A stretch of DNA of 9,255 bases from a virus. Its lineage: Duplodnaviria; Heunggongvirae; Uroviricota; Caudoviricetes. The stretch is from the IMG/VR virus record IMGVR_UViG_2778261231_000013; one strand, 5' to 3'. The position numbers and the translations under genes were made by a program. The notes under the pieces are model-generated. The model had not been told where the DNA came from and made no database searches. It was given only the letters and a program-made list of their open reading frames with translations. Below are positions 1-9,255 of the stretch, in pieces (the stretch's first letter is position 1; the number at the start of each line of letters is the position of its first letter).

Positions 1-243
1 TTACAGTGCCAGCGATAGCTGATCTTCGCCGTGGTGACTTCGTGGAAAAGCTTCTTGTGGCACCATCGCGCCTGGCGCTGGCTGGGTCTGGTTTAGTGAA
101 CCGTCTATTTCCGTCATGCTGGTGAAACAGTACCCGCACAACATATTTTGACACTGGTGATAGCTGCGCCGTACAAGCAAACTCAGCTCAACGCTGGTTC
201 TGGTTTTTGCTATTGCACGGCAGCGAGGACAGCGCATTGCCAT
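1..243 (-). CDS. ogr: Ogr/Delta-family zinc-finger late transcription activator
   Basis: 80-codon ORF with stop at 1-3. Translation carries the Cys-X2-Cys ... Cys-X4-Cys pattern (CPRC ... CQNMLC) and the RTS and YHQCQN motifs I recall from P2 Ogr. It lies immediately downstream of D on the same strand, as in P2. GGAGG (minus strand, 251-255) sits 7 nt upstream of the ATG at 243; a second in-frame ATG is at 237. Confidence 0.85.
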   Translation of the reverse strand: MAMRCPRCRAIAKTRTSVELSLLVRRSYHQCQNMLCGYCFTSMTEIDGSLNQTQPAPGAMVPQEAFPRSHHGEDQLSLAL

Positions 244-291
244 ACGCGGGCCTCCTTTCAGGACTGGTTAATATCAACGCAAGTATAACGC

Positions 292-1410
292 TTAAGACGT
301 TGAATCGTCACTCTCCGCTGTCCAGTCGTCGATTTTTACTTCCAGTTCCAGCGACGTGGTAAACCCTCCCCCACCAATATCATGAACACACCGCGTTATC
401 GTCCAGTTCCCACTGTCGATCGTGGACTTAAAGCCGTAGACGCTGGCGGGCTGTTCCGGGTACAAATCTGCGCGGCCACGCGCCAGGGTGATGCTGAACG
501 TCGCTGCCCCGCGCTGCAACTCCCGCCACTTAGCCGCTGCGGCACGCTTTGCCGCCTTTTCCGTCTTGAAGGTTTTACGGATAACAAAAACGTTGCCTTC
601 GGCCCCGGCCAGATAATCCCCTTCTTTTTTGCTTGATGCTGGTTCTTTCTTTTTGGCCTGGCTGGTTCGTCGCCTGCGGGTGGTTTTCTTCACGGTAGTG
701 GATGGTTTCTTGCCAAAGTTGAGATCAAGCCAGTATGCAGTTACGCCCGTGTACGCGTCGCGGTCAGCTACGTTAAACCGATGTTTATCACCGCATGACC
801 GGACTATCTCGATCACCGGCAGCGGCTTGCCGCTCTGCGTCACTCCCTTGCCCGGCGTGATAAACAGAAGCATACCGTTTTTAATGGTTGCCACCGCGCC
901 CAGCATTTCGGCCATGCGCGTTAAGAAGCTGATATCTGATTCACTCGTCTGATCGGCGTGGTCTATCTCAATCTTCGCCAGTTCTTCGCTGACGCCCGCA
1001 CGCAGATCGTAGCGGCTGGCAATGCTGGCGACCACGTCCCCCACGGTAATATCGTGCCAGCTATATTCCCGCTTCACGTTAAAGGTATCGCGGAAATCTG
1101 CGCTTCTGGCACTGATCGTTAGCTGGTCAGGCGGGCCAGAGTGTCCGATCTCGTCAACCGTATACACGCCCTTAAAAACCAATGGATCATTATCCCAGCC
1201 CAGCGCCACCGATATCTTTGCGCCGCGTGATGGTAAGGCTACCTGCCCGTCTGCATCATCCAGAGTCAGATCCAGCGTGTCCGCTTCAAAGCCCCGGTTA
1301 TCTGTCAGGGAAAGGGAGATCAGCCGGTTATCCAGCGCCGTAAGCTCCTTACCTTCAATCTCAATACTGAACGCCGGGCGCGGCGAATATCGGTTTTCTG
1401 TCGTGTCCAT
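292..1410 (-). CDS. gpD: Tail protein D (P2 gpD-like late control gene D / baseplate hub-type protein)
   Basis: 372-aa ORF of the size and general sequence character of P2 gpD. It directly precedes ogr on the same strand, the P2 D-ogr arrangement. AAGGGG Shine-Dalgarno on the minus strand just upstream of the ATG at 1410. Confidence 0.85.
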   Translation of the reverse strand: MDTTENRYSPRPAFSIEIEGKELTALDNRLISLSLTDNRGFEADTLDLTLDDADGQVALPSRGAKISVALGWDNDPLVFKGVYTVDEIGHSGPPDQLTISARSADFRDTFNVKREYSWHDITVGDVVASIASRYDLRAGVSEELAKIEIDHADQTSESDISFLTRMAEMLGAVATIKNGMLLFITPGKGVTQSGKPLPVIEIVRSCGDKHRFNVADRDAYTGVTAYWLDLNFGKKPSTTVKKTTRRRRTSQAKKKEPASSKKEGDYLAGAEGNVFVIRKTFKTEKAAKRAAAAKWRELQRGAATFSITLARGRADLYPEQPASVYGFKSTIDSGNWTITRCVHDIGGGGFTTSLELEVKIDDWTAESDDSTS

Positions 1411-1477
1411 ATCAACCCCTTCATCATGATGGGGTACATCGTCGCCACGCGCGCGCGCATGAACAACGCCCCGTCAT

Positions 1478-1495
1478 TGTTGCAGGTTGCTGACA
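1478..1495. promoter_or_regulatory. Candidate Ogr-responsive late-promoter operator (TGT-N12-ACA dyad) in the divergent D/FI intergenic region
   Basis: The sequence TGTtgcaggttgctgACA at 1478-1495 matches the TGT-N12-ACA dyad described for P2/P4 late promoters (normally centred near -55). Its centre is about 81 bp upstream of the FI ATG; a weak -10-like GATATT lies at 1533-1538. No experimental support is available from sequence alone. Confidence 0.5.
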
Positions 1496-1567
1496 ACCCT
1501 TATCCATCGCATCGGCCCGCCATTGCCGCAATGATATTCGCAGTCATTAAACTGGCGAGGCAAATAC

Positions 1568-2761
1568 ATGGCCACTAACTACCATCACGGTGTTACCGTC
1601 ACGGAAACCACCGACCTTAGCACGATGATCACCGACATTGATTCGGCGGTGATCGGCGTTGTCTGCACCGCTGATGATGCGGACGAAACAGCGTTCCCGC
1701 TGGATACCCCTGTACTGATTACCCGCGTGGCTAACATGCTGGGCAAGGCAGGTAAAACCGGCACCCTGTTTACCACCCTGAAAGCGATTTCAGACCAGAC
1801 CAGCCCGCAAACCATTGTGATCCGCGTTGCTGATGCTGCAAATATCAAACCGCCAGAAGGCGGCACCGCACAGACTCAGGATCAACTGGTTATTGGCGGC
1901 ACCGATGCAAACGGGCGCTTTACCGGCATGTACGCGCTGCTGTCTGCCGAAATGCGCGTAGGTGTGCGCCCGCGTGTACTGGCTGTTCCTGGGCTTGATA
2001 CGGAAGCGGTAGCCGCACAACTCGGCGTCATTGCCGAAAAGCTGCGCGCGTTTGCTTACGTGGCAGCGAACGGCTGCAACACAATCGCCGAAGTGAAGGT
2101 ATACCGCGAGCAATTCTCCCAGCGTGAAATGATGGTTATCTGGCCTAATTTCATCTGCTACGACACCAACGCCGGGGCTAATGCCACCGTGCCCGTGGGT
2201 GCCCATGCTGTTGGGATGCGCGCCAAAATCGACGCAACGCAGGGCTGGCATAAAACCATTTCCAACGTGCCCGTTAATAACGTGCTGGGGATGGATCGGG
2301 ATATCTATTTCACGTTGCAGGGCACCGATACCGACGCCGACGAACTGAACGCAGCAGGTGTTACCACGCTGATCAAGCAGGACGGCTACCGCATCTGGGG
2401 ATCACGTACCTGCGACGCGGAAACGTATATCTTCGAAAGCTATACCCGAACCGCGCAGATTGTTGCGGATACCGTCGCCGAAGCCCATTTCGCCTATGTT
2501 GATAAACCGCTTACCCCGTCGCTGGTAAAGGACATTGTGGACGGCATCAATAAGAAGCTGACCTCATATGTGACGGCTGGCAAGCTGCTGGGCGCCCGCT
2601 GCTGGTATGACCCAGAACCGAATACCTCGGAAACTCTGCGCAATGGTCAACTGACCATTAAGTACAACTACACCCCTGTTCCACCGCTGGAAAATCTCAG
2701 CCTGGTACAGGAGTTCACCGACGAATATTTCGCTACGTTTTCCAGCGCAGTGAATAACTAA
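1568..2761 (+). CDS. gpFI: Contractile tail sheath protein (P2 gpFI-like)
   Basis: 397-aa ORF, the size of P2 FI, with an N-terminal ...YHHGV... segment as I recall for P2-type sheath proteins. GAGG 7 nt upstream of the ATG. Followed 12 nt later by the tail tube gene, as in P2. Confidence 0.9.
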   Translation: MATNYHHGVTVTETTDLSTMITDIDSAVIGVVCTADDADETAFPLDTPVLITRVANMLGKAGKTGTLFTTLKAISDQTSPQTIVIRVADAANIKPPEGGTAQTQDQLVIGGTDANGRFTGMYALLSAEMRVGVRPRVLAVPGLDTEAVAAQLGVIAEKLRAFAYVAANGCNTIAEVKVYREQFSQREMMVIWPNFICYDTNAGANATVPVGAHAVGMRAKIDATQGWHKTISNVPVNNVLGMDRDIYFTLQGTDTDADELNAAGVTTLIKQDGYRIWGSRTCDAETYIFESYTRTAQIVADTVAEAHFAYVDKPLTPSLVKDIVDGINKKLTSYVTAGKLLGARCWYDPEPNTSETLRNGQLTIKYNYTPVPPLENLSLVQEFTDEYFATFSSAVNN

Positions 2762-2773
2762 CCGGGGGCGCTT

Positions 2774-3289
2774 ATGGCACTGCCTAAGAAACTCAAATAT
2801 TTCAATATGTTCTTTGACGGGGATAACTACTTCGGCATGGTGCCGGAAATCACCCCCGCCAAACTCACCAAAAAAACGGAAGACTACCAGGCGGGTGGTA
2901 TGCCGGGTTCGGTTGCGGTGGATCTTGGCTTCGACGCTGGCGCCCTGGATATGGATATCACGCTTGGCGGTCTGGATGCCGGATTGCTGAAAAAATGGGG
3001 CGTTACCACTGCGGACGGGATGCAAACACGTTTTGCTGGCTCCTATCAGGACGACGCAACCGGCGACGCTGTACCGTGCGAAATCCAGACGCGTGGCCGC
3101 TTCACTGAACTGGATCCCGGTTCGGCAAAAGTCGGGGATGACACTTCGCATAAGTACACCCTGAAAAACACCTATTACAAGCTGACCATCAACGGCGAAG
3201 AGATCATCGAAGTTGATGTGCTCAACATGATCTACAAAGTTGCCGGTGTGGATGTGCTGGAAAAACACCGCGCTAACATCGGCCTATAA
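2774..3289 (+). CDS. gpFII: Tail tube protein (P2 gpFII-like)
   Basis: 171-aa ORF starting MALPKKLKYFNMF and ending ...RANIGL, colinear with my recollection of P2 FII (about 172 aa). Lies immediately after the sheath gene. Confidence 0.9.
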   Translation: MALPKKLKYFNMFFDGDNYFGMVPEITPAKLTKKTEDYQAGGMPGSVAVDLGFDAGALDMDITLGGLDAGLLKKWGVTTADGMQTRFAGSYQDDATGDAVPCEIQTRGRFTELDPGSAKVGDDTSHKYTLKNTYYKLTINGEEIIEVDVLNMIYKVAGVDVLEKHRANIGL

Positions 3290-3303
3290 GGAAACCCGGC
3301 ACC

Positions 3304-3639
3304 ATGAGCAAGACCAAAGAAAACACCGTTATTCTTACCGCCCCTATTACGCGCGGTAAGACCAAAATCACCGAAGTGGCGATCACTTCCGTGCTTAAAC
3401 AGGCTGGATCACTGCGCGGCTTAAAAGCCTATGACGTGCTGACTTCCAACTATGACGCGCTGGTTATTCTGCTGCCCCGCGTTACCGCTCCGGCACTAAC
3501 CGCCGATGAGATTGCCCGTATGGATACTTGGGATTTTTGCCAGCTAGCCAACGCGGTGGTTGATTTTTTGCAACCCTCTTCGGATCTGACCGCGACGGAT
3601 ACGGGCAACGAATCATCCGATGCCCCTGCGAACGCATAG
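3304..3639 (+). CDS. gpE: Tail assembly chaperone (P2 gpE-like), zero-frame product
   Basis: 111-aa ORF between the tube and tape-measure genes, the position of P2 E. AAGGAAA upstream of the ATG. Contains the T_TTT_TTG slippery heptamer at 3564-3570. Confidence 0.8.
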   Translation: MSKTKENTVILTAPITRGKTKITEVAITSVLKQAGSLRGLKAYDVLTSNYDALVILLPRVTAPALTADEIARMDTWDFCQLANAVVDFLQPSSDLTATDTGNESSDAPANA

Positions 3640-3764
3640 AAGACCTGATGGCAGATATCGCCGTCATATTCCACTGGCGGCCGGTAGAGATGGACGCCAT
3701 GACGGTACAGGAAATACTGTTATGGCGTGATCAGGCGGCTGCGCGCAGTGGTGGAGATAACTAA
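3304..3764 (+). CDS. gpE+E': Tail assembly chaperone E+E' fusion made by programmed -1 ribosomal frameshift (predicted, about 153 aa)
   Basis: After slippage on T_TTT_TTG (3564-3570) the -1 frame is open for 64 codons (ATLFGSDRDGYGQRIIRCPCERIEDLMADIAVIFHWRPVEMDAMTVQEILLWRDQAAARSGGDN) and ends at TAA 3762-3764, which abuts the T start at 3765. This fills an otherwise unexplained 125-bp gap and mirrors the P2 E/E' arrangement. Confidence 0.7.
3564..3570 (+). other. -1 programmed frameshift slippery heptamer T_TTT_TTG
   Basis: Zero-frame codons GAT-TTT-TTG (D-F-L) give the X_XXY_YYZ pattern with X=T, Y=T, Z=G, the heptamer reported for P2 E/E'. Confidence 0.7.
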
Positions 3765-6692
3765 ATGGCAGACCGCAATTTAAATATCAGGGTGGCATTC
3801 AGCGCCCTGAATAATATGTCCCGCCCTGTCAACGCGGCGCGCCAGAGTGCCGCCGCGTTGGCGTCTCAAATCAACCAGACTAAAACCAGCATTAAAGGGC
3901 TTGAGCGTCAGGCAACCAGCTTTGACCGCCTCACCGCAGCCAATAAAAAAACCACCGAACAACTGGCCCAGGCGAAAGAACAGGCCCGGCAAATGGCGGC
4001 GGCTTATGGCCCGTTACGCCAGCGCAGCGCCGAACAGGTTGCCGCCCTCAATCAGCAACGTGCAGCCATTCGCCAGTTAACCCAGCAGCAGAAAGGCGAG
4101 CAGACGCAGCTTAACCAGTTGCGGGCCAGCTTCTACAGCGAAGGCATTGCGATCAGCAGCGCCAGCCGGGCGACGGAACAGATCAACCAGCGCACCGCGC
4201 AATACAACCGCCAGCTTGCCGAACAGCAGCGACGGCTTGACGCTGTTAACCAGGCGCAGGCCCGTTACAGCCGCGCCAAAGAAACCGGCGAAAAGATGAT
4301 GAGCGGGGGGATGAAAAGCGCCGCAGTAGGGGCGGCAACCCTAGCACCTGTCGCCGCTGCGGTTAAATCCTACAGCAGCCTTGAAGACGCCATGAAAGGC
4401 GTAGCCAAACAGGTAAACGGCTTGCGTGACGACAGCGGCAACCGCACCCCGCAATATGAAGAAATGCAGCGGGCGATCATGGATGCCAGCGAAAAGCTGC
4501 CAATGGCAAACGGTGCTGTTGACTATGCCGCACTGGTCGAAGGCGGCGCACGTATGGGCGTAGCAAACATCGATGATCCGTGGGAAAAACAAAAAGCCGA
4601 TCTGCTGTCTTTCGCCAGCATGGCGGCAAAGGCTTCTGTTGCCTTTGAACTTCCCGCCGACCAGCTTTCTGAAAGTCTCGGTAAGATTGCCGGGCTGTAT
4701 AAAATCCCTACCCAGAATATTGAACAGTTAGGCGACGCCATAAACTACCTGGACGATAACGCGAAGTCGAAAGGCTCCGATATTATCGACGTGCTCCAGC
4801 GCGTTGGCGGACTTGCCAGCCAACTGGATTACAAGCAAGCCGCCGCGCTGGGTTCCACCTTTCTGACGCTCGGCACCCCTGCCGAAGTTGCCGCCAGCGC
4901 CACCAATGCAATGGTGCGCGAACTCTCAATCGCTACGGTTCAGGGCAAAAACTTTATGCAGGGTCTGGACGCCCTCGGCCTCAGCGCCGAAAAAGTTCAG
5001 AAGAGCATGTCAGTGGACGCGATGGGCACAATCATTTCAGTGCTGGAAGCGTCCAAAAAACTGGCCCCGGATCAGCAGGTAGCCAACCTTACCCAGATTT
5101 TCGGCAAAGAGTTCGGCGATGATGCGCAGAAACTTGCGAACAATCTGCCCGAACTACGCCGCCAGATAGAACTGACGCAGGGCGCAGCCGCTAAAGGATC
5201 CATGAATCGGGAATCGGATATCAACAAAGCTTCCCTTTCTGCTCAGTGGCAACTGACCAAAACCGGCGCGGTTAACGCATTCAGTTCAGCAGGGGAAACG
5301 CTCCGCGAACCGCTGATGGATATCATGCTTACTGTCAGTAAGGTGGTTGGCAGCGTCCGCCGCTGGGTTGAGGCAAACCCGGCGTTGGTTGGTTCAATCA
5401 TGAAAGTCACCGCAGCCATAGGCGCGTTGCTGGTTGTCGTGGGCGGTCTGATGCTGTCCATTGGTGCGGTACTCGGCCCAATGGCACTTGTTCGCCTCAG
5501 CTTCACCACGTTGGCCGGGGAAGGAGGAATAGCGCGGCTGACTGGCGGCGTAATGCGCCTGGGTGGTGCGTTCCAGTGGCTTGCTGGCTCGCCTATGCAG
5601 GCATTGTTAAGCGCCGGTCGCATGGTATTCGGCCCGCTTATCACGCTACTGGCTGGCATTTCTGCGCCCGTCTGGGGGCTGATTGCTCTCTTTTCTGCGG
5701 CAGCTGTGGCCGTCATTAAATTCTGGCAACCGATTAAGGCATTTTTCAGCGGGTTCTTTACCGGGCTGATGGCTGGCCTTCAACCTATCACGCAGGCATT
5801 TAACGCCGTATTTGCACCGCTGGCCCCGATTTTTGACAGTATCGGCAACGCGATCAGCGGCGTCTGGGAGTGGTTTACCAAACTGCTGGAACCGATCCAG
5901 TTTTCCAGCGAAGCGCTGGCATCCTGTACCAGTGCAGGGGAAACATTCGGCAAGGTGGTAGGGGGTGCAATCAGCGCGCTGACTCTTCCCATTCAGTCCG
6001 TAGCCAAAGGGCTGGGCTGGATTCTGGAAAAGCTTGGCGCCATTCCCGACGCAGCGAAAGCAGCGCAGCAGGTTGCGCAGCAAATGACGCCGGAAGCGGT
6101 CAACAATCTGGCAGACCGGGTTAACGCCTTTTCCGGTGACGTGCAGGCAGTCGCGAAGGAAAGCAAAAAAGCCGAAGAGAAAAAGAAAACCGATGAGCAG
6201 AAGAAACAGGACAACCTGATTAACTCGCTCAAAGGCCCGGCCAACATCGTGCCGAAGATGAGCAGTAGCTTGGACAAAATCGCCACCAATACCACGGAGA
6301 AGAAAGACGGCCCCGGCGAAATTGTCTTCAAGAATAAGCAGCCCTATATCCCGATCCGTGGCGGATATTCGGAACCTCTTAAGCAGGCACAGCGCCAGCT
6401 ACCATCCCTTACCGATTGGGTGACGCAGCAGGCCGGATCGCTGATCGCTTCCGTTACCCCCTGGCAGGTTGAGAAGCCCGCCGCCCGGGTGCCCGTTTCG
6501 GCGTCGCCGTCTGCGGCCTCCGTCGCTGCGCTGATGCCTGCACCGGGTGGCGATGTATATAACCTTAACTTCGACTTTAGCGGCCAGAAACTGGATGAAG
6601 AAACCATTATCAGGCGCGTGCGCGAAGAACTTGCGTTAGCGAAGCAGCAGGCCGACCGGCGCAAGCGTTCCCAACTGACCGATCACGTCTAA
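3765..6692 (+). CDS. gpT: Tail tape measure protein (P2 gpT-like)
   Basis: 975-aa ORF in the position of P2 T. Q/A-rich coiled-coil-like N-terminal third, central hydrophobic segments (for example ALVGSIMKVTAAIGALLVVVGGLMLSIGAVLGPMALV), and a charged K/E-rich patch, all typical of tape measure proteins. Confidence 0.9.
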   Translation: MADRNLNIRVAFSALNNMSRPVNAARQSAAALASQINQTKTSIKGLERQATSFDRLTAANKKTTEQLAQAKEQARQMAAAYGPLRQRSAEQVAALNQQRAAIRQLTQQQKGEQTQLNQLRASFYSEGIAISSASRATEQINQRTAQYNRQLAEQQRRLDAVNQAQARYSRAKETGEKMMSGGMKSAAVGAATLAPVAAAVKSYSSLEDAMKGVAKQVNGLRDDSGNRTPQYEEMQRAIMDASEKLPMANGAVDYAALVEGGARMGVANIDDPWEKQKADLLSFASMAAKASVAFELPADQLSESLGKIAGLYKIPTQNIEQLGDAINYLDDNAKSKGSDIIDVLQRVGGLASQLDYKQAAALGSTFLTLGTPAEVAASATNAMVRELSIATVQGKNFMQGLDALGLSAEKVQKSMSVDAMGTIISVLEASKKLAPDQQVANLTQIFGKEFGDDAQKLANNLPELRRQIELTQGAAAKGSMNRESDINKASLSAQWQLTKTGAVNAFSSAGETLREPLMDIMLTVSKVVGSVRRWVEANPALVGSIMKVTAAIGALLVVVGGLMLSIGAVLGPMALVRLSFTTLAGEGGIARLTGGVMRLGGAFQWLAGSPMQALLSAGRMVFGPLITLLAGISAPVWGLIALFSAAAVAVIKFWQPIKAFFSGFFTGLMAGLQPITQAFNAVFAPLAPIFDSIGNAISGVWEWFTKLLEPIQFSSEALASCTSAGETFGKVVGGAISALTLPIQSVAKGLGWILEKLGAIPDAAKAAQQVAQQMTPEAVNNLADRVNAFSGDVQAVAKESKKAEEKKKTDEQKKQDNLINSLKGPANIVPKMSSSLDKIATNTTEKKDGPGEIVFKNKQPYIPIRGGYSEPLKQAQRQLPSLTDWVTQQAGSLIASVTPWQVEKPAARVPVSASPSAASVAALMPAPGGDVYNLNFDFSGQKLDEETIIRRVREELALAKQQADRRKRSQLTDHV

Positions 6693-6702
6693 GGGCAATA
6701 TC

Positions 6703-7152
6703 ATGATGATGATTCTGGGGATGTTCCCCTTTTCACTGCAAACCACGCCTTACCAGAGTGCGAATAAAACCAACTCCTGGCGGCACGTCAAAAACGATCG
6801 CGTGGGGAAATCCCCGCGCTATCAGTTCATCGGCGCAGATGAAGAACCGTTCGTACTCAGCGGCACGCTGTACCCCGAAATAAGCGGCGGTGATGTGTCG
6901 CTTGTCATGCTGGAAACTATGGCTTTTTCCGGGCGCCCGTGGCCCCTGATAGAAGGCACGGGCAGGATCTACGGCATGTATGTCATTGAGCAGATCACGC
7001 AAAACCGGACGGAATTTTTTAAGGACGGGAAGGCAAAGAAAATTGATTTTACGCTCAACCTGAAACGGGTAAGCGAGGACATACGGGAAAAGCTGGCTGA
7101 AACAACTACCGACGATCTCTTCTCTCTGGTGAAAACCAACCTTTCGATATAA
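6703..7152 (+). CDS. gpU: Tail protein U (P2 gpU-like)
   Basis: 149-aa ORF starting MMMILGMF, with SWRH, VGK and TGG motifs matching my recollection of P2 gpU (which also starts MMM). Lies directly after T. AAGGG 7 nt upstream of the ATG. Confidence 0.85.
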   Translation: MMMILGMFPFSLQTTPYQSANKTNSWRHVKNDRVGKSPRYQFIGADEEPFVLSGTLYPEISGGDVSLVMLETMAFSGRPWPLIEGTGRIYGMYVIEQITQNRTEFFKDGKAKKIDFTLNLKRVSEDIREKLAETTTDDLFSLVKTNLSI

Positions 7153-7155
7153 GAA

Positions 7156-7175
7156 AAGCGGGCCTTTGCCCGCTT
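7156..7175. terminator. GC-rich hairpin between convergent U and invertase genes (candidate bidirectional intrinsic terminator)
   Basis: AAGCGGGC (7156-7163), loop CTTT, GCCCGCTT (7168-7175) form a perfect 8-bp stem. An A-rich run precedes it on the plus strand, which gives a U-rich tail for minus-strand transcripts; the plus-strand tail (CGTCTTCC) is less U-rich. Confidence 0.5.
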
Positions 7176-7258
7176 CGTCTTCCGGAACACACCGCCATAA
7201 CTGACCGTGCTACAGCACCGTTAAAAATGACTGTACTCGATACGCACGGCCAGCACGG

Positions 7259-7840
7259 TTAGAACCAGCCATGCGTGCCGGAATCCTTATTCCTGGTCGC
7301 AGGGAATTTTTTGTAAAGCGTAGATATCCCAACATCGTAAATTATAGCAACCCTCCGGCGAGATTCTCCTGCCGCTATTAATCTACCCGCCTGCGCCCAT
7401 TGTTCTGGTGTTAGTTTTGGTCGTCTACCTCCGATCCTTCCCTGCGCGCGAGCGGCCACCAGTCCTGCACGCGTACGCTCGACAATCAATTCTCTCTCCA
7501 TCTCTGCCAGTGCCCCCATAACATGAAAAAAGAAACGCCCCATTGGCGTTGATGTATCAATACTGTCAGTCAAGCTGCGGAAGTTCACGGAACGTTGCTT
7601 TAGCTCCTCCACGAGAATTACCAAGTTCCGCATACTCCGCCCAAGACGATCCAGCTTCCAGACAACAAGCGAGTCTCCTGGAGAAAGGCGCTTTAGTAAT
7701 TTTTTAAGCCCTGGCCTTTCCGCTGTTCTCCCGCTCATTTTATCTTCAAAAATTAGCTCACATCCTGACCGCTCAAGCGCATCACGTTGCAAAGCCGTGT
7801 TCTGGTCATTTGTTGATACGCGCACATACCCAATAAACAT
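7259..7840 (-). CDS. Site-specific DNA invertase, serine recombinase of the Din family (Gin/Pin/Cin/Hin-like)
   Basis: 193-aa ORF with N-terminus MFIGYVRVSTNDQ carrying the catalytic serine, then conserved blocks LVVWKLDRLGRSM, FRSLTDSIDTSTPMGRFFFHVMGALAEMERELIVERT and a C-terminal helix-turn-helix (VAIIYDVGISTLYKKF). It is near-colinear with my recollection of Pin (e14) and Gin (Mu). Confidence 0.95.
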   Translation of the reverse strand: MFIGYVRVSTNDQNTALQRDALERSGCELIFEDKMSGRTAERPGLKKLLKRLSPGDSLVVWKLDRLGRSMRNLVILVEELKQRSVNFRSLTDSIDTSTPMGRFFFHVMGALAEMERELIVERTRAGLVAARAQGRIGGRRPKLTPEQWAQAGRLIAAGESRRRVAIIYDVGISTLYKKFPATRNKDSGTHGWF

Positions 7841-7894
7841 AGTTTTTCATTCCGTTAAAACGATAAATCATGCCATTCGCATAAAAATTATGCA

Positions 7895-7920
7895 TTTTCC
7901 AAAACGTTGGTTTGGGGGAA
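7895..7920. other. Candidate 26-bp invertase crossover site (hix/gix/cix-like)
   Basis: TTTTCCAAAACG-TT-GGTTTGGGGGAA: two imperfect inverted 12-bp half-sites around a central TT dinucleotide. It resembles the Din-family consensus half-site TTATC(C/A)AAAACC (about 9-10 of 12 matches per half). It lies 55 bp upstream of the invertase start, where such sites sit next to gin/pin/cin. Confidence 0.6.
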
Positions 7921-8259
7921 GCGGCCAAATTGCCTGCGATTAGTGGCTCTTTATCATCATCTGGCTGGATAAAAATCCCTGTTATAGAGGGGGAGTCTTT
8001 TATTATCCAATGGGGAAGAATCGGACCTTCTGATAGTAAAACTGGTGTTGCAACAGGAAGTTATCCTATTGCTTTTCCAAATTCTGCATTTATGGCATTT
8101 ATTGCTGAAAAAACCGCAGTATCCACAGGCCCAATAGGTATTAATTCCTGGGGAGTGTCCGAACTAACAAAAACAGAATTAAAGGCCATTTGTGCTGCAA
8201 GGACTATATCAACTTCAGCCGCAACTGAAATAGGTGATTTTCTGGTACTGGGATATTGA
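7912..8259 (+). CDS. Start-less tail-fibre C-terminal variable cassette (silent alternative receptor-binding end; no ATG start of its own)
   Basis: The ORF track starts it at a TTG, but the frame is open from 7885 across the crossover site. Its stop TGA (8257-8259) is followed by a tfa gene, the usual fibre-then-assembly order. It has no promoter or constant N-terminal fibre part in this orientation. Markedly AT-rich. Confidence 0.5.
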   Translation: MGEAAKLPAISGSLSSSGWIKIPVIEGESFIIQWGRIGPSDSKTGVATGSYPIAFPNSAFMAFIAEKTAVSTGPIGINSWGVSELTKTELKAICAARTISTSAATEIGDFLVLGY

Positions 8260-8279
8260 ACTTCCATAAGGATTATAAA

Positions 8280-8729
8280 ATGTCGAGCATAATATACTAC
8301 AGCTCTATAAATAATGCATTTTACCCTGAGCATTTGAAACAAGAATATATTAAATCTAATTCTTTTCCAGCAGATGCAAAACCCGTTAAATATTCTGTTT
8401 TCGAAGAATTTGCACTTAAACCAGCACCAGAAGGAAAATACAGATGCGTTGGTGAAGATGGAATGCCATCATGGGCAGATATTCCACCACCAACACATGA
8501 GGAACAGATTGCCGCAGCCGAATTGAAAAAGCAGCAATTGATTAACCAGGTCAACGAATACATGAACAGTAAACAATGGCCCGGTAAAGCGGCTATTGGT
8601 CGTCTGAAAGGTGAGGAACTGGCGCAATATAATCTGTGGCTGGATTACCTGGACGCACTGGAAATGGTCGATACTTCCAGTGCTCCAGATATTGAATGGC
8701 CTACGCCTCCGGCAGTTCAGGCCAGATGA
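8280..8729 (+). CDS. tfa: Tail fibre assembly protein (Tfa family; Mu U / lambda Tfa-like)
   Basis: ATG at 8280 preceded by AGGA (8270-8273); I prefer this to the upstream in-frame TTG at 8256. The C-terminus ...VDTSSAPDIEWPTPP matches the conserved Tfa C-terminal motif (compare TfaE ...VDTSTAPDIEWP, from memory). Confidence 0.8.
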   Translation: MSSIIYYSSINNAFYPEHLKQEYIKSNSFPADAKPVKYSVFEEFALKPAPEGKYRCVGEDGMPSWADIPPPTHEEQIAAAELKKQQLINQVNEYMNSKQWPGKAAIGRLKGEELAQYNLWLDYLDALEMVDTSSAPDIEWPTPPAVQAR

Positions 8730-9255
8730 CATCTGGCGCGGTGCTGGTATCAGTTGCCGTCACCGCGTCAATGTAATCCAGCACAGCGTTAAGGCGGGTT
8801 GTTTCTGCCTGCGTCAGCTTCCGCCCGGCCTGTAATTTCAGTTGAATCAGACTAATGGAAGCCATTGCAGTATCCATCAGCGACTGGCGCTGTGCTTCTG
8901 CTGCGTCTACTGCGGCGCTATGCTGTGCCTCAGTATCGGTCACCCATTTCTCACCATCCCATTTATCGTATGGCGTTAATGGGGCGATAGTGGTTGTATT
9001 TTCAGGGTAATCACCCGGAGCGGTGATTTCTTTTGATTCTCCTGTTTTGGTGCTATAGACCGTTTCACCGCGATGGTCTGGCACATATTCCCATGAGTTA
9101 AAATCTGCAGAACGGCAGATTGCATAACCAGCCTTATGTGTGCCAGGGGCATCTAAACAGGAACATGCCGGAATGCCGACACCAACGGCAAGATATTCAT
9201 TTGAAGTGGAAATATATTCCCGAGTTTCACCATCATAGCTATAGACGGTAATATT
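8701..9255 (-). CDS. tfa: Second tail fibre assembly protein (Tfa family), 5'-truncated by the window edge
   Basis: The minus-strand frame is open from the window edge to the stop at 8701-8703. Translation (...FNSWEYVPDHRGETVY...KWDGEKWVTDTEA...TDTSTAPDVIWPELPEA) is colinear with my recollection of e14 TfaE. The ORF track's 8701..9084 reflects only the first in-window alternative start (GTG); no ATG/GTG/TTG exists upstream in frame, so the real N-terminus lies past 9255. Confidence 0.8.
   Translation of the reverse strand, partial: NITVYSYDGETREYISTSNEYLAVGVGIPACSCLDAPGTHKAGYAICRSADFNSWEYVPDHRGETVYSTKTGESKEITAPGDYPENTTTIAPLTPYDKWDGEKWVTDTEAQHSAAVDAAEAQRQSLMDTAMASISLIQLKLQAGRKLTQAETTRLNAVLDYIDAVTATDTSTAPDVIWPELPEA

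Follow-up and report, generated by a model that had tools for sequence, protein, structure and literature searches.

Tail-gene order in P2 and in the window

P2 serves as the family template for gene order. In its annotated record, the F operon consists of seven genes (FI, FII, E, E′, T, U and D) that lie on one strand and form one transcription unit, with ogr after D and the fiber genes H and G before FI, in agreement with the reference order used in the initial annotation. Yet one whole enterobacterial branch of P2-like phages, which includes Senquatrovirus, Xuanwuvirus and prophages of 17 labeled genera of Enterobacterales, has a different and stable tail-gene layout. In SEN4 and SEN5 (Senquatrovirus, Peduoviridae), whose subcluster was defined by Casjens and Grose (2016) as cited in PMC5261728, the FI–U block is flipped, and a spacer containing a dyad lies between the divergent D and FI genes. 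In the Escherichia phage P88 (Xuanwuvirus), a fiber gene is followed by inverted fiber cassettes, an invertase gene, U-T-E-FII-FI in reverse and then D, and in a fragment of the Serratia phage KSP20, a gpD-like gene diverges from a gpFI-like gene. The block inversion is not mentioned in the papers on SEN4/5 (PMC5261728), P88 (PMC5285337) and phiSM (PMC6456863), nor in those on P2-like defense hotspots (PMC13586616) and Xenorhabdus tailocins (PMC13280938).

The stretch of DNA analyzed here (the window, 9255 bp) probably belongs to an E. coli P2-like prophage of the Senquatrovirus type, of which it represents the tail end. Two genes were identified on the minus strand from the list of open reading frames and Pfam matches: ogr (1–243), encoding the late transcription activator with its Ogr/Delta zinc finger (Ogr_Delta, E = 1.5e-13; also annotated in RefSeq in a 99.97% identical prophage), and D (292–1410; Phage_GPD), encoding the tail/baseplate hub protein and divergent from FI. 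The plus strand then carries FI for the tail sheath (1568–2761; Phage_sheath_1 and Phage_sheath_1C), FII for the tail tube (2774–3289; Phage_tube, E = 3.4e-61), E for a tail assembly chaperone (3304–3639; Phage_TAC_7, a weak match of 23.1 bits, below the gathering score of 25), T for the tape measure protein (3765–6692; PhageMin_Tail) and U, the last gene of the flipped block (6703–7152; Phage_P2_GpU, E = 4.7e-39). Outside the block, a serine DNA invertase gene (7259–7840, minus strand; Resolvase and HTH_7) is followed by a fiber C-terminal cassette (7912–8259, plus strand) and a convergent pair of tail-fiber assembly genes (8256–8729, plus strand, and 8701–9084, minus strand), with Gp53-like_C and Caudo_TAP matches across 7912–9084. 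Six P2-like tail-module proteins (FI, FII, T, U, D and Ogr/Delta) score above the Pfam gathering score, and the initial annotation's strand assignments, with ogr and D on the minus strand, FI-FII-E/E′-T-U on the plus strand and the invertase/fiber region after U, were borne out. Rfam and tRNA scans over the window gave no matches.

The window shares with the P2 F operon its gene set, the position of ogr after D and the E/E′ frameshift, the last of which is predicted from the reading frames. A T-rich slippery site (TTTTTTG, 3564–3570, plus strand) lies within E just before T, and the −1 frame from it, putatively E′, another tail assembly chaperone reading frame, is open to 3764, the position immediately before the first base of T, so that E and E′ together would span 3304–3764. 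In the 99.97% identical prophage, RefSeq annotates 3690–3764 as a GpE family protein.

The order in the window equals the P2 order with the 5.7-kb FI–U block flipped. Whereas the P2 genes form a single unit on one strand, here D lies on the strand opposite to FI–U, and D-ogr is a separate, divergent unit. In an E. coli prophage that hardly differs from the window, one strand carries V-W-J-I-H together with the invertase gene, D and ogr, and only FI–U is opposite. The D–FI spacer of 157 bp falls within the range of the flipped clade (about 140–200 bp), and U faces the fiber/invertase region, as it does throughout that clade.

Distribution of the flipped order

How widely is this layout shared? 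SEN4 and SEN5 align with positions 1–7350 as one collinear piece at 94.3% nucleotide identity, with the same gene order on the map; this comparison covers the 9-kb window, whereas genus and species are assigned from whole genomes. At about 65% nucleotide identity, the divergent D/FI junction is present in P88, KSP20, Shae_phiSM, phiT5282H, Chuche, 500465-2, 520873, 503458 and others, making about a dozen named phages (22 records when GenBank/RefSeq pairs are counted), and the gene maps of P88 and KSP20 agree with the flipped order. The D protein of the window is 99% identical to that of SEN5 (and SEN4), 63–64% identical to those of P88 (64%), its relatives and KSP20, and 51% identical to that of P2.

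Among complete E. coli genomes, 31 of 5426 contain the junction, which is intact in 32 of the 32 records that carry this prophage. The species-representative genomes contain 33 flipped loci, in which D is 61–99% identical to that of the window, spread over the 17 labeled genera; the P2 order was found there in 47 loci, with a D identity of at most 58%. One further flipped locus carries the label Vagococcus, which is probably mistaken. In IMG/VR, all 80 contigs with a D protein 63–99% identical are flipped. A sibling in the P2 orientation was sought among the E. coli genomes, the species-representative genomes and the IMG/VR contigs, and none was found.

Since every examined relative in this large, old branch shares the layout, it has been inherited and does not stem from a recent rearrangement. 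The initial annotation had left open a lineage-typical arrangement or a large inversion, and the former reading is strongly supported: the same order occurs in SEN4/SEN5, in P88 and in all relatives found with a D identity of 61% or more. The value of this result is chiefly for annotation, in that synteny-based prophage callers, and readers as well, should not score the layout as a rearrangement or an assembly error.

The explanation that we propose, an old and fixed inversion together with divergent late units that share a dyad, is as a whole very probable. An inversion in an ancestor of the large Enterobacterales P2-like branch would have become fixed and then been inherited. One breakpoint would have lain between the invertase (or fiber) genes and the FI late promoter, and the other between U and D. 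With the breakpoints so placed, the flipped block would have taken its promoter and palindromic Ogr-binding dyad along and brought the dyad to a position immediately in front of D. The F operon would consequently have been split into two divergent late units, with FI–U transcribed to the right and D-ogr to the left. A single TGT-N12-ACA site, with a −10 element about 44–49 nt away on each side, most likely drives the two units, like the P/O pair of P2.

The D–FI spacer and its predicted promoters

Could one activator site serve both units? The TGT-N12-ACA dyad TGTTGCAGGTTGCTGACA lies at 1478–1495 in the center of the D–FI spacer (dyad center 1486.5) and is the only one in the window. TGT-N12-ACA is the P2-type late-activator (Ogr) motif, a partial dyad whose center precedes the start of transcription by about 55 nt. 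In P2, the dyad of the F operon precedes the FI ATG by about 82 nt, and the PF start is 57–58 nt from its own dyad center. Of 37 flipped-clade sequences, 29 have the exact dyad, 78.5–85.5 nt from the FI ATG, the same offset as in P2-order phages. The other eight (counted before dereplication), including P88 with five of six, match at 4–5 of the 6 positions. In its dyad and the offset of that dyad, the spacer matches a P2-type late promoter, and activation by Ogr is predicted.

On each side of the dyad, 44–49 nt from its center, lies a predicted −10 element: AATGAT for FI (1530–1535, plus strand; predicted start near 1542) and GACGAT for D (1438–1443, minus strand; predicted start near 1431). 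Counted at an offset of +43 to +45 from the dyad center, xAxxAT was seen on the FI side of 35 of 35 distinct sequences of the flipped clade and of 38 of 39 P2-order sequences. On the D side, 32 of the 35 distinct flipped-clade sequences have it, whereas only 3 of 39 P2-order phages have it on the side of the dyad that faces no gene. The hexamer and dyad counts come from related sequences and are not independent events; the contrast with this other side is the main control. Furthermore, in 33 of 35 sequences, a D start codon with a Shine-Dalgarno-like sequence before it is located 67–81 nt from the dyad center.

This layout mirrors one described in P2 itself, where the annotated record gives one activator site for pO and pP and the starts (3016 and 3127) are each 55.5 nt from the dyad center (3071.5). 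In both cases, a single dyad lies midway between divergent late units; in P2, it serves P and O and its function is known, whereas in the window it would serve D and FI. D thus most likely has a separate Ogr-dependent promoter within the spacer, and the conserved mirror-image arrangement supports the initial annotation's point that D, once separated from FI–U, needs a promoter of its own. We also favor, with some reserve, the view that the inversion was tolerated because the palindromic Ogr site works in both directions: flipping the block together with its promoter would have put this site before D, and a mirror −10 element would have made D-ogr a second late unit off the same bound activator.

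On the other hand, the inversion could be old and fixed while D is transcribed from an ordinary sigma-70 promoter or another signal in the spacer. The D-side hexamer GACGAT is a poor −10 element, some members of the clade have no exact dyad, and a simple consensus scan gave a sigma-70-like site at 1415–1386 (minus strand). That site overlaps the D start codon and is therefore unable to serve D. P2 late promoters, too, typically have a poor −10 element and no −35 element. Moreover, the D-side hexamer is retained at the FI-side offset in the 32 sequences despite about 35–40% nucleotide divergence and is rare on the same side in P2-order phages, and P2 provides the precedent of one such site serving two divergent late promoters. 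We consider transcription of D from such a signal unlikely.

The predicted D late promoter that shares its activator site with the FI promoter is the modestly new element of this analysis. If it is real, the D/FI spacer would join P/O of P2 as an example of an Ogr site that acts in both directions. If, in addition, the inversion was tolerated because of this property of the site, the clade would be a natural experiment on how Ogr-family zinc-finger proteins activate bidirectionally and on how an essential operon can split without new regulators.

Origin of the inversion and the resident invertase

Neighbor-joining distance trees of D, FI, FII and U were built from 36 flipped loci (35 for FII and 33 for U) and 39 P2-order loci, and in each tree one branch parts the flipped from the P2-order loci, so that a single change suffices to account for the two layouts. 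Could the flipped order nevertheless be ancestral and the P2 order derived, or could the layout have arisen several times independently? The trees are simple, unrooted distance trees that carry no support values, and polarity was taken from three outgroups, which leaves some room for such readings. Against them, FI–U and D lie on one strand in P2, in phiCTX (Pseudomonas) and in RSA1 (Ralstonia); likewise, the gene table of the paper on the Burkholderia phage KS5 places D and U next to each other on one strand. These outgroups and the single separating branch in all four protein trees make an ancestral or repeatedly arisen flipped order highly improbable, and the flip is most simply one old, fixed inversion.

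Could the resident serine invertase have flipped the FI–U block at secondary (quasi-hix) sites, either recently or in a manner that is still reversible? The initial annotation had raised such an event as a possibility. The invertase gene and one hix-like site do adjoin the block, and invertases of the Cin/Gin type are able to act on quasi-sites, albeit at a low frequency. The site, a hix/gix-like 26-bp crossover sequence (TTTTCCAAAACGTTGGTTTGGGGGAA, 7895–7920, plus strand) at the edge of the fiber cassette, is the only match to the degenerate 26-bp pattern in the window, and any match occurred in 0 of 200 shuffles. Identity to NZ_LT883142.1 stops at 7916, within this site. The Resolvase and HTH_7 invertase and a 26-bp hix-like site bordering alternative fiber cassettes are features of the Gin/Hin/Cin/Pin-type invertible tail-fiber segments; no partner site was found in the window, whose end falls within the fiber region. 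This system concerns the fiber cassettes from 7895 onward, and nothing ties it to the FI–U flip.

No hix-like site was found at either block junction (1411–1567 and 7153–7258), even with three mismatches to the degenerate 26-bp pattern, and weak hix-core matches elsewhere in the window, including one at 7133–7144 inside U, are within the range of shuffles. A search of the whole window for inverted repeats and a direct comparison of the junctions yielded only the 8-mer CAGTCATT; as the initial annotation had judged, it is not significant, for although it is the longest junction match, a match of at least 8 nt occurred in 358 of 500 shuffles. In 33 related flipped loci, the longest inverted repeats at the junctions are 6–11 nt, and none exceeds 11 nt. 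The block therefore lacks the two inverted 26-bp end sites by which Hin/Gin/Cin-type inversion proceeds.

The invertase gene itself is not part of the flipped block, and this speaks against an event that it drove. It is on the strand of D, ogr and the fiber genes; in P88, it has the same place and orientation, and in P2-order prophages, it lies between the fiber genes and FI. Inversion at the actual hix site, which lies upstream of the invertase gene, would have flipped that gene too, but its position and orientation beside the fiber genes are the same in both arrangements. SEN4 and SEN5, unlike the window, have no intact invertase or invertible fiber cassettes; of the invertase gene, they retain only the final 92 bp, which follow directly on their own tail-fiber assembly gene. 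They and most flipped loci, which also lack an intact invertase, have the same order nonetheless. Finally, a single orientation was seen in the 32 E. coli records, the 33 genome loci and the 80 viral contigs. An inversion by the resident invertase is thus close to refuted and has very little probability left. An assembly error in the source genome is refuted and its probability is negligible, as the same junctions recur in 32 independent complete E. coli records, in the virion-derived SEN4/SEN5 genomes and in many other assemblies.

The old, fixed inversion remains the preferred reading. As for other routes by which it might have arisen, recombination between the P/O and FI promoter dyads would flip O–G and not FI–U, and a breakpoint inside the dyad was rejected, since the D–FI spacer still contains the whole dyad.

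The G+C content across the fiber region (7912–9084) is 0.38–0.45, compared with about 0.55 in the tail genes. Upstream of ogr, in the 3′ end of D, a promoter-like site GTGACG-18-TATACT (282–311, minus strand) matches the consensus weakly (9 of 12 positions); the annotated P2 record has −35 and −10 elements between D and ogr, and the site in the window may correspond to this ogr promoter of P2. The scan also found a G+C-rich hairpin of nine pairs at 7155–7176, between the convergent U and invertase genes, which is likely a terminator. It was called on the minus strand, where a T-run follows the stem, so that it may terminate the invertase transcript; on the U strand, it forms a stem-loop of −22 kcal/mol with no clear T-run. 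A comparable hairpin directly follows U in many, although not all, members of the flipped clade.

Gene order in the window and its relatives

In the window, ogr (1–243) and D (292–1410) lie on the minus strand and are separated by a 157-bp spacer from the plus-strand genes FI (1568–2761), FII (2774–3289), E (3304–3639), T (3765–6692) and U (6703–7152). A second spacer of 106 bp, which holds a G+C-rich hairpin, leads to a minus-strand serine invertase gene (7259–7840) and then to a hix-like site at 7895–7920, to the right of which are a fibre C-terminal cassette and two convergent tail-fibre assembly genes. The identities of the ORFs were all confirmed by Pfam, with only the match of E falling below the gathering score, and the sequence has the signal for P2-type frameshifting between E and E′ (TTTTTTG at 3564–3570, the −1 frame staying open as far as 3764).

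The annotated P2 record agrees with the reference order used in the initial annotation: FI, FII, E, E′, T, U and D form one F operon, H–G lie upstream, and ogr, with its own promoter, lies behind D. In the E. coli prophage NZ_LT883142.1, which is 99.97% identical to the window over 1–7916, the baseplate/fibre genes V-W-J-I-H, the invertase gene, D and ogr share one strand, and the opposite strand carries FI to U only. Together with the P2 order, this strand pattern shows that the observation made from the window's ORFs was correct: the layout is the P2 order with the FI–U block flipped in place.

Is this layout private to the present genome? The Salmonella phages SEN4 and SEN5 (genus Senquatrovirus) gave one collinear match to window positions 1–7350 (94.3% identity), with the block flipped as in the window. 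When a phage collection was searched with a 1.4-kb query across the D/FI junction, both halves were found joined and divergent, at ~65% identity, in P88 and other Xuanwuvirus members, Serratia phage KSP20, Citrobacter phage Shae_phiSM, Enterobacter phage phiT5282H, Escherichia phages Chuche, 500465-2, 520873, 503458 and PhiR44_2, and one Klebsiella phage. The P88 map corresponds to that of the window in each gene, running from the fibre gene through inverted fibre cassettes and the invertase to U-T-E′-E-FII-FI reversed and then D, and the KSP20 fragment has divergent gpFI-like and gpD-like genes. The junction is also present in 31 of 5426 complete E. coli genomes, intact and in one piece in 32 of 32 records. 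The flipped layout is thus not private to this genome but an ordinary lineage trait, the first of the two readings initially offered. It is already on record, as the branch includes classified, annotated phages and RefSeq contains the sequence of the window; no comment on it was found in the papers examined on SEN4/5, P88, phiSM, P2-like defence hotspots and Xenorhabdus tailocins.

The SEN5 RefSeq record carries a 120-nt minus-strand ORF at 22160–22279 noted as "late control protein ogr". This annotation looks misplaced, because in related loci the tblastn match to Ogr, the late transcription activator, is found on the strand that carries D.

Depth of the split and the resident invertase

Using a D-protein alignment, 80 loci were fetched from bacterial genomes (one per species) and each was typed by tblastn. 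All 33 loci in which D was 61–99% identical to that of the window had, in this order, J and I on the plus strand, U, T, FII and FI on the minus strand, and D and ogr on the plus strand. The P2 order was found in each of the 47 loci whose D identity was 58% or lower. The flipped loci carry the host labels Salmonella, Citrobacter, Hafnia, Dryocola, Enterobacter, Pectobacterium, Photorhabdus, Xenorhabdus, Yersinia, Rouxiella, Providencia, Brenneria, Morganella, Kosakonia, Klebsiella, Edwardsiella and Serratia. A Chania contig ending before U has the divergent D/FI junction too. One additional flipped locus is on a contig labelled Vagococcus sp. WN89Y; it is a P88-like enterobacterial prophage, and the label probably reflects assembly contamination or an error. 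In IMG/VR, 80 of 80 contigs with D 63–99% identical are flipped.

In neighbor-joining distance trees of D, FI, FII and U, a single branch parts the 36 flipped loci (35 for FII, 33 for U) from 39 P2-order loci, and identity within the flipped group drops to 54–58% for FI and D. P2, Ralstonia phage RSA1 and Pseudomonas phage phiCTX keep the P2 order. A single inversion in the branch's ancestor, fixed ever since, would explain this most simply; its polarity, from P2 order to flipped, is only likely, because the trees carry no support values and outgroups are few.

Could a secondary-site event of the resident invertase have flipped the block, as was initially suggested? The evidence says no. The longest sequence common to both junctions (1411–1567 and 7153–7258) is the 8-mer already judged insignificant, and 358 of 500 shuffles gave one as long or longer. 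No repeat in the window links the junctions, and when the window was scanned with a degenerate 26-bp pattern for hix/gix sites, allowing three mismatches at most, the one match was the true site at 7895–7920; neither inverted repeats above chance nor hix-like sites were found at the junctions. Across 33 further flipped loci, the maximum length of inverted matches between the junctions was 6–11 nt. Furthermore, the invertase gene lies in fibre orientation in both layouts, between the fibre genes and FI in P2-order prophages that have it and between the fibre genes and U in flipped ones, which argues against its involvement, as a crossover at the real site upstream would have flipped the invertase gene too. 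Most flipped loci, including SEN4/SEN5, lack an intact invertase. The origin of the flip is so old that it is beyond reconstruction from present-day junctions; none of the observations speaks for the invertase.

The 9-pair hairpin (7155–7176) lies between the convergent U and invertase genes; in many, not all, members of the flipped clade a hairpin directly follows U. A role of the window's hairpin as the FI–U terminator is only suggested, because its T-run is on the invertase strand.

The invertase/fibre module itself has apparently been lost or replaced more than once, through breaks within the invertase gene's 3′ end. SEN4/SEN5 retain only its last 92 bp (window 7259–7350, SEN5 14938–15029), right after a tail-fibre assembly gene, and homology of several E. 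coli relatives stops at 7284 or 7267. The identity with NZ_LT883142.1 ends at 7916, within the hix-like site, and the fibre cassettes differ beyond; the crossover site therefore also borders fibre-cassette exchange between prophages. The G+C content of 0.38–0.45 at 7750–8750, compared with ~0.55 in the tail genes, suggests a different source for the fibre cassette.

A predicted D promoter sharing the FI activator site

Could the putative FI activator site also serve D? TGT-N12-ACA, the P2-type late-activator dyad, occurs once in the window, at 1478–1495, in the middle of the D–FI spacer (chance expectation ~1.4 per window; probability of one within the 157 bp ~0.02). The P2 record annotates such activator sites along with transcription starts. 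Of 37 flipped-clade sequences, 29 have the exact dyad 78.5–85.5 nt away from the FI start codon, and the offset is identical in 39 P2-order prophages. With all sequences anchored on the dyad centre, 35 of 35 distinct flipped sequences have an xAxxAT hexamer starting at 43–45 nt towards FI, and 32 of 35 have one at this distance towards D; in the P2-order controls, the FI side carried it in 38 of 39 sequences and the gene-less side in 3 of 39. In 33 of the 35, a D start codon preceded by a Shine–Dalgarno-like sequence is 67–81 nt away from the dyad centre. In the window, the predicted −10-like hexamers are AATGAT for FI (1530–1535, plus strand, start ~1542) and GACGAT for D (1443–1438, minus strand, start ~1431).

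P2 offers a direct precedent, as one activator site is annotated for its divergent promoters pP and pO, whose starts (3016 and 3127) both lie 55.5 nt away from its dyad centre; the O/P spacer of the window's prophage type has an exact dyad as well. On the strength of the dyad, the conserved two-sided hexamers and this precedent, we propose that D–ogr is driven from a site shared with FI, the transcription starts and Ogr dependence being sequence-based predictions. The block would have flipped along with its promoter and dyad, so that the palindrome came to lie ahead of D and D–ogr became an additional late unit using the site of FI. Transcription from the D promoter would continue into ogr, as that of the P2 F operon does according to the annotated P2 terminator. 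The earlier expectation that D needs its own promoter is thereby matched by a predicted one, a small, testable addition to the known layout.

Short ORFs at 1426–1578 (plus) and 1320–1496 (minus) overlap the spacer. They and their counterparts annotated as hypothetical proteins, SEN5_27 and P88 gp50, are probably not genes, because they span the conserved promoter region. On the D side (1449–1482), a conserved GACAAC-N9-GTTGTC-like palindrome overlaps a dyad half-site, with an alternating CG run between it and the −10-like hexamer; the O/P spacer of the window's prophage type shows a similar pattern on its P side. In a related E. coli prophage (L002, 39216–39280), the annotated large terminase start codon and the centre of the O/P dyad are just 55.5 nt apart, which puts the codon close to the expected beginning of the late transcript and may reflect a misannotated start or a near-leaderless mRNA. 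In a Klebsiella sp. WOUb02 locus (L071, ~9339–10185), the FI and D matches are truncated and ~850 bp apart, compared with ~160–200 bp elsewhere, suggesting that the divergent promoter region has been damaged or has received an insertion.
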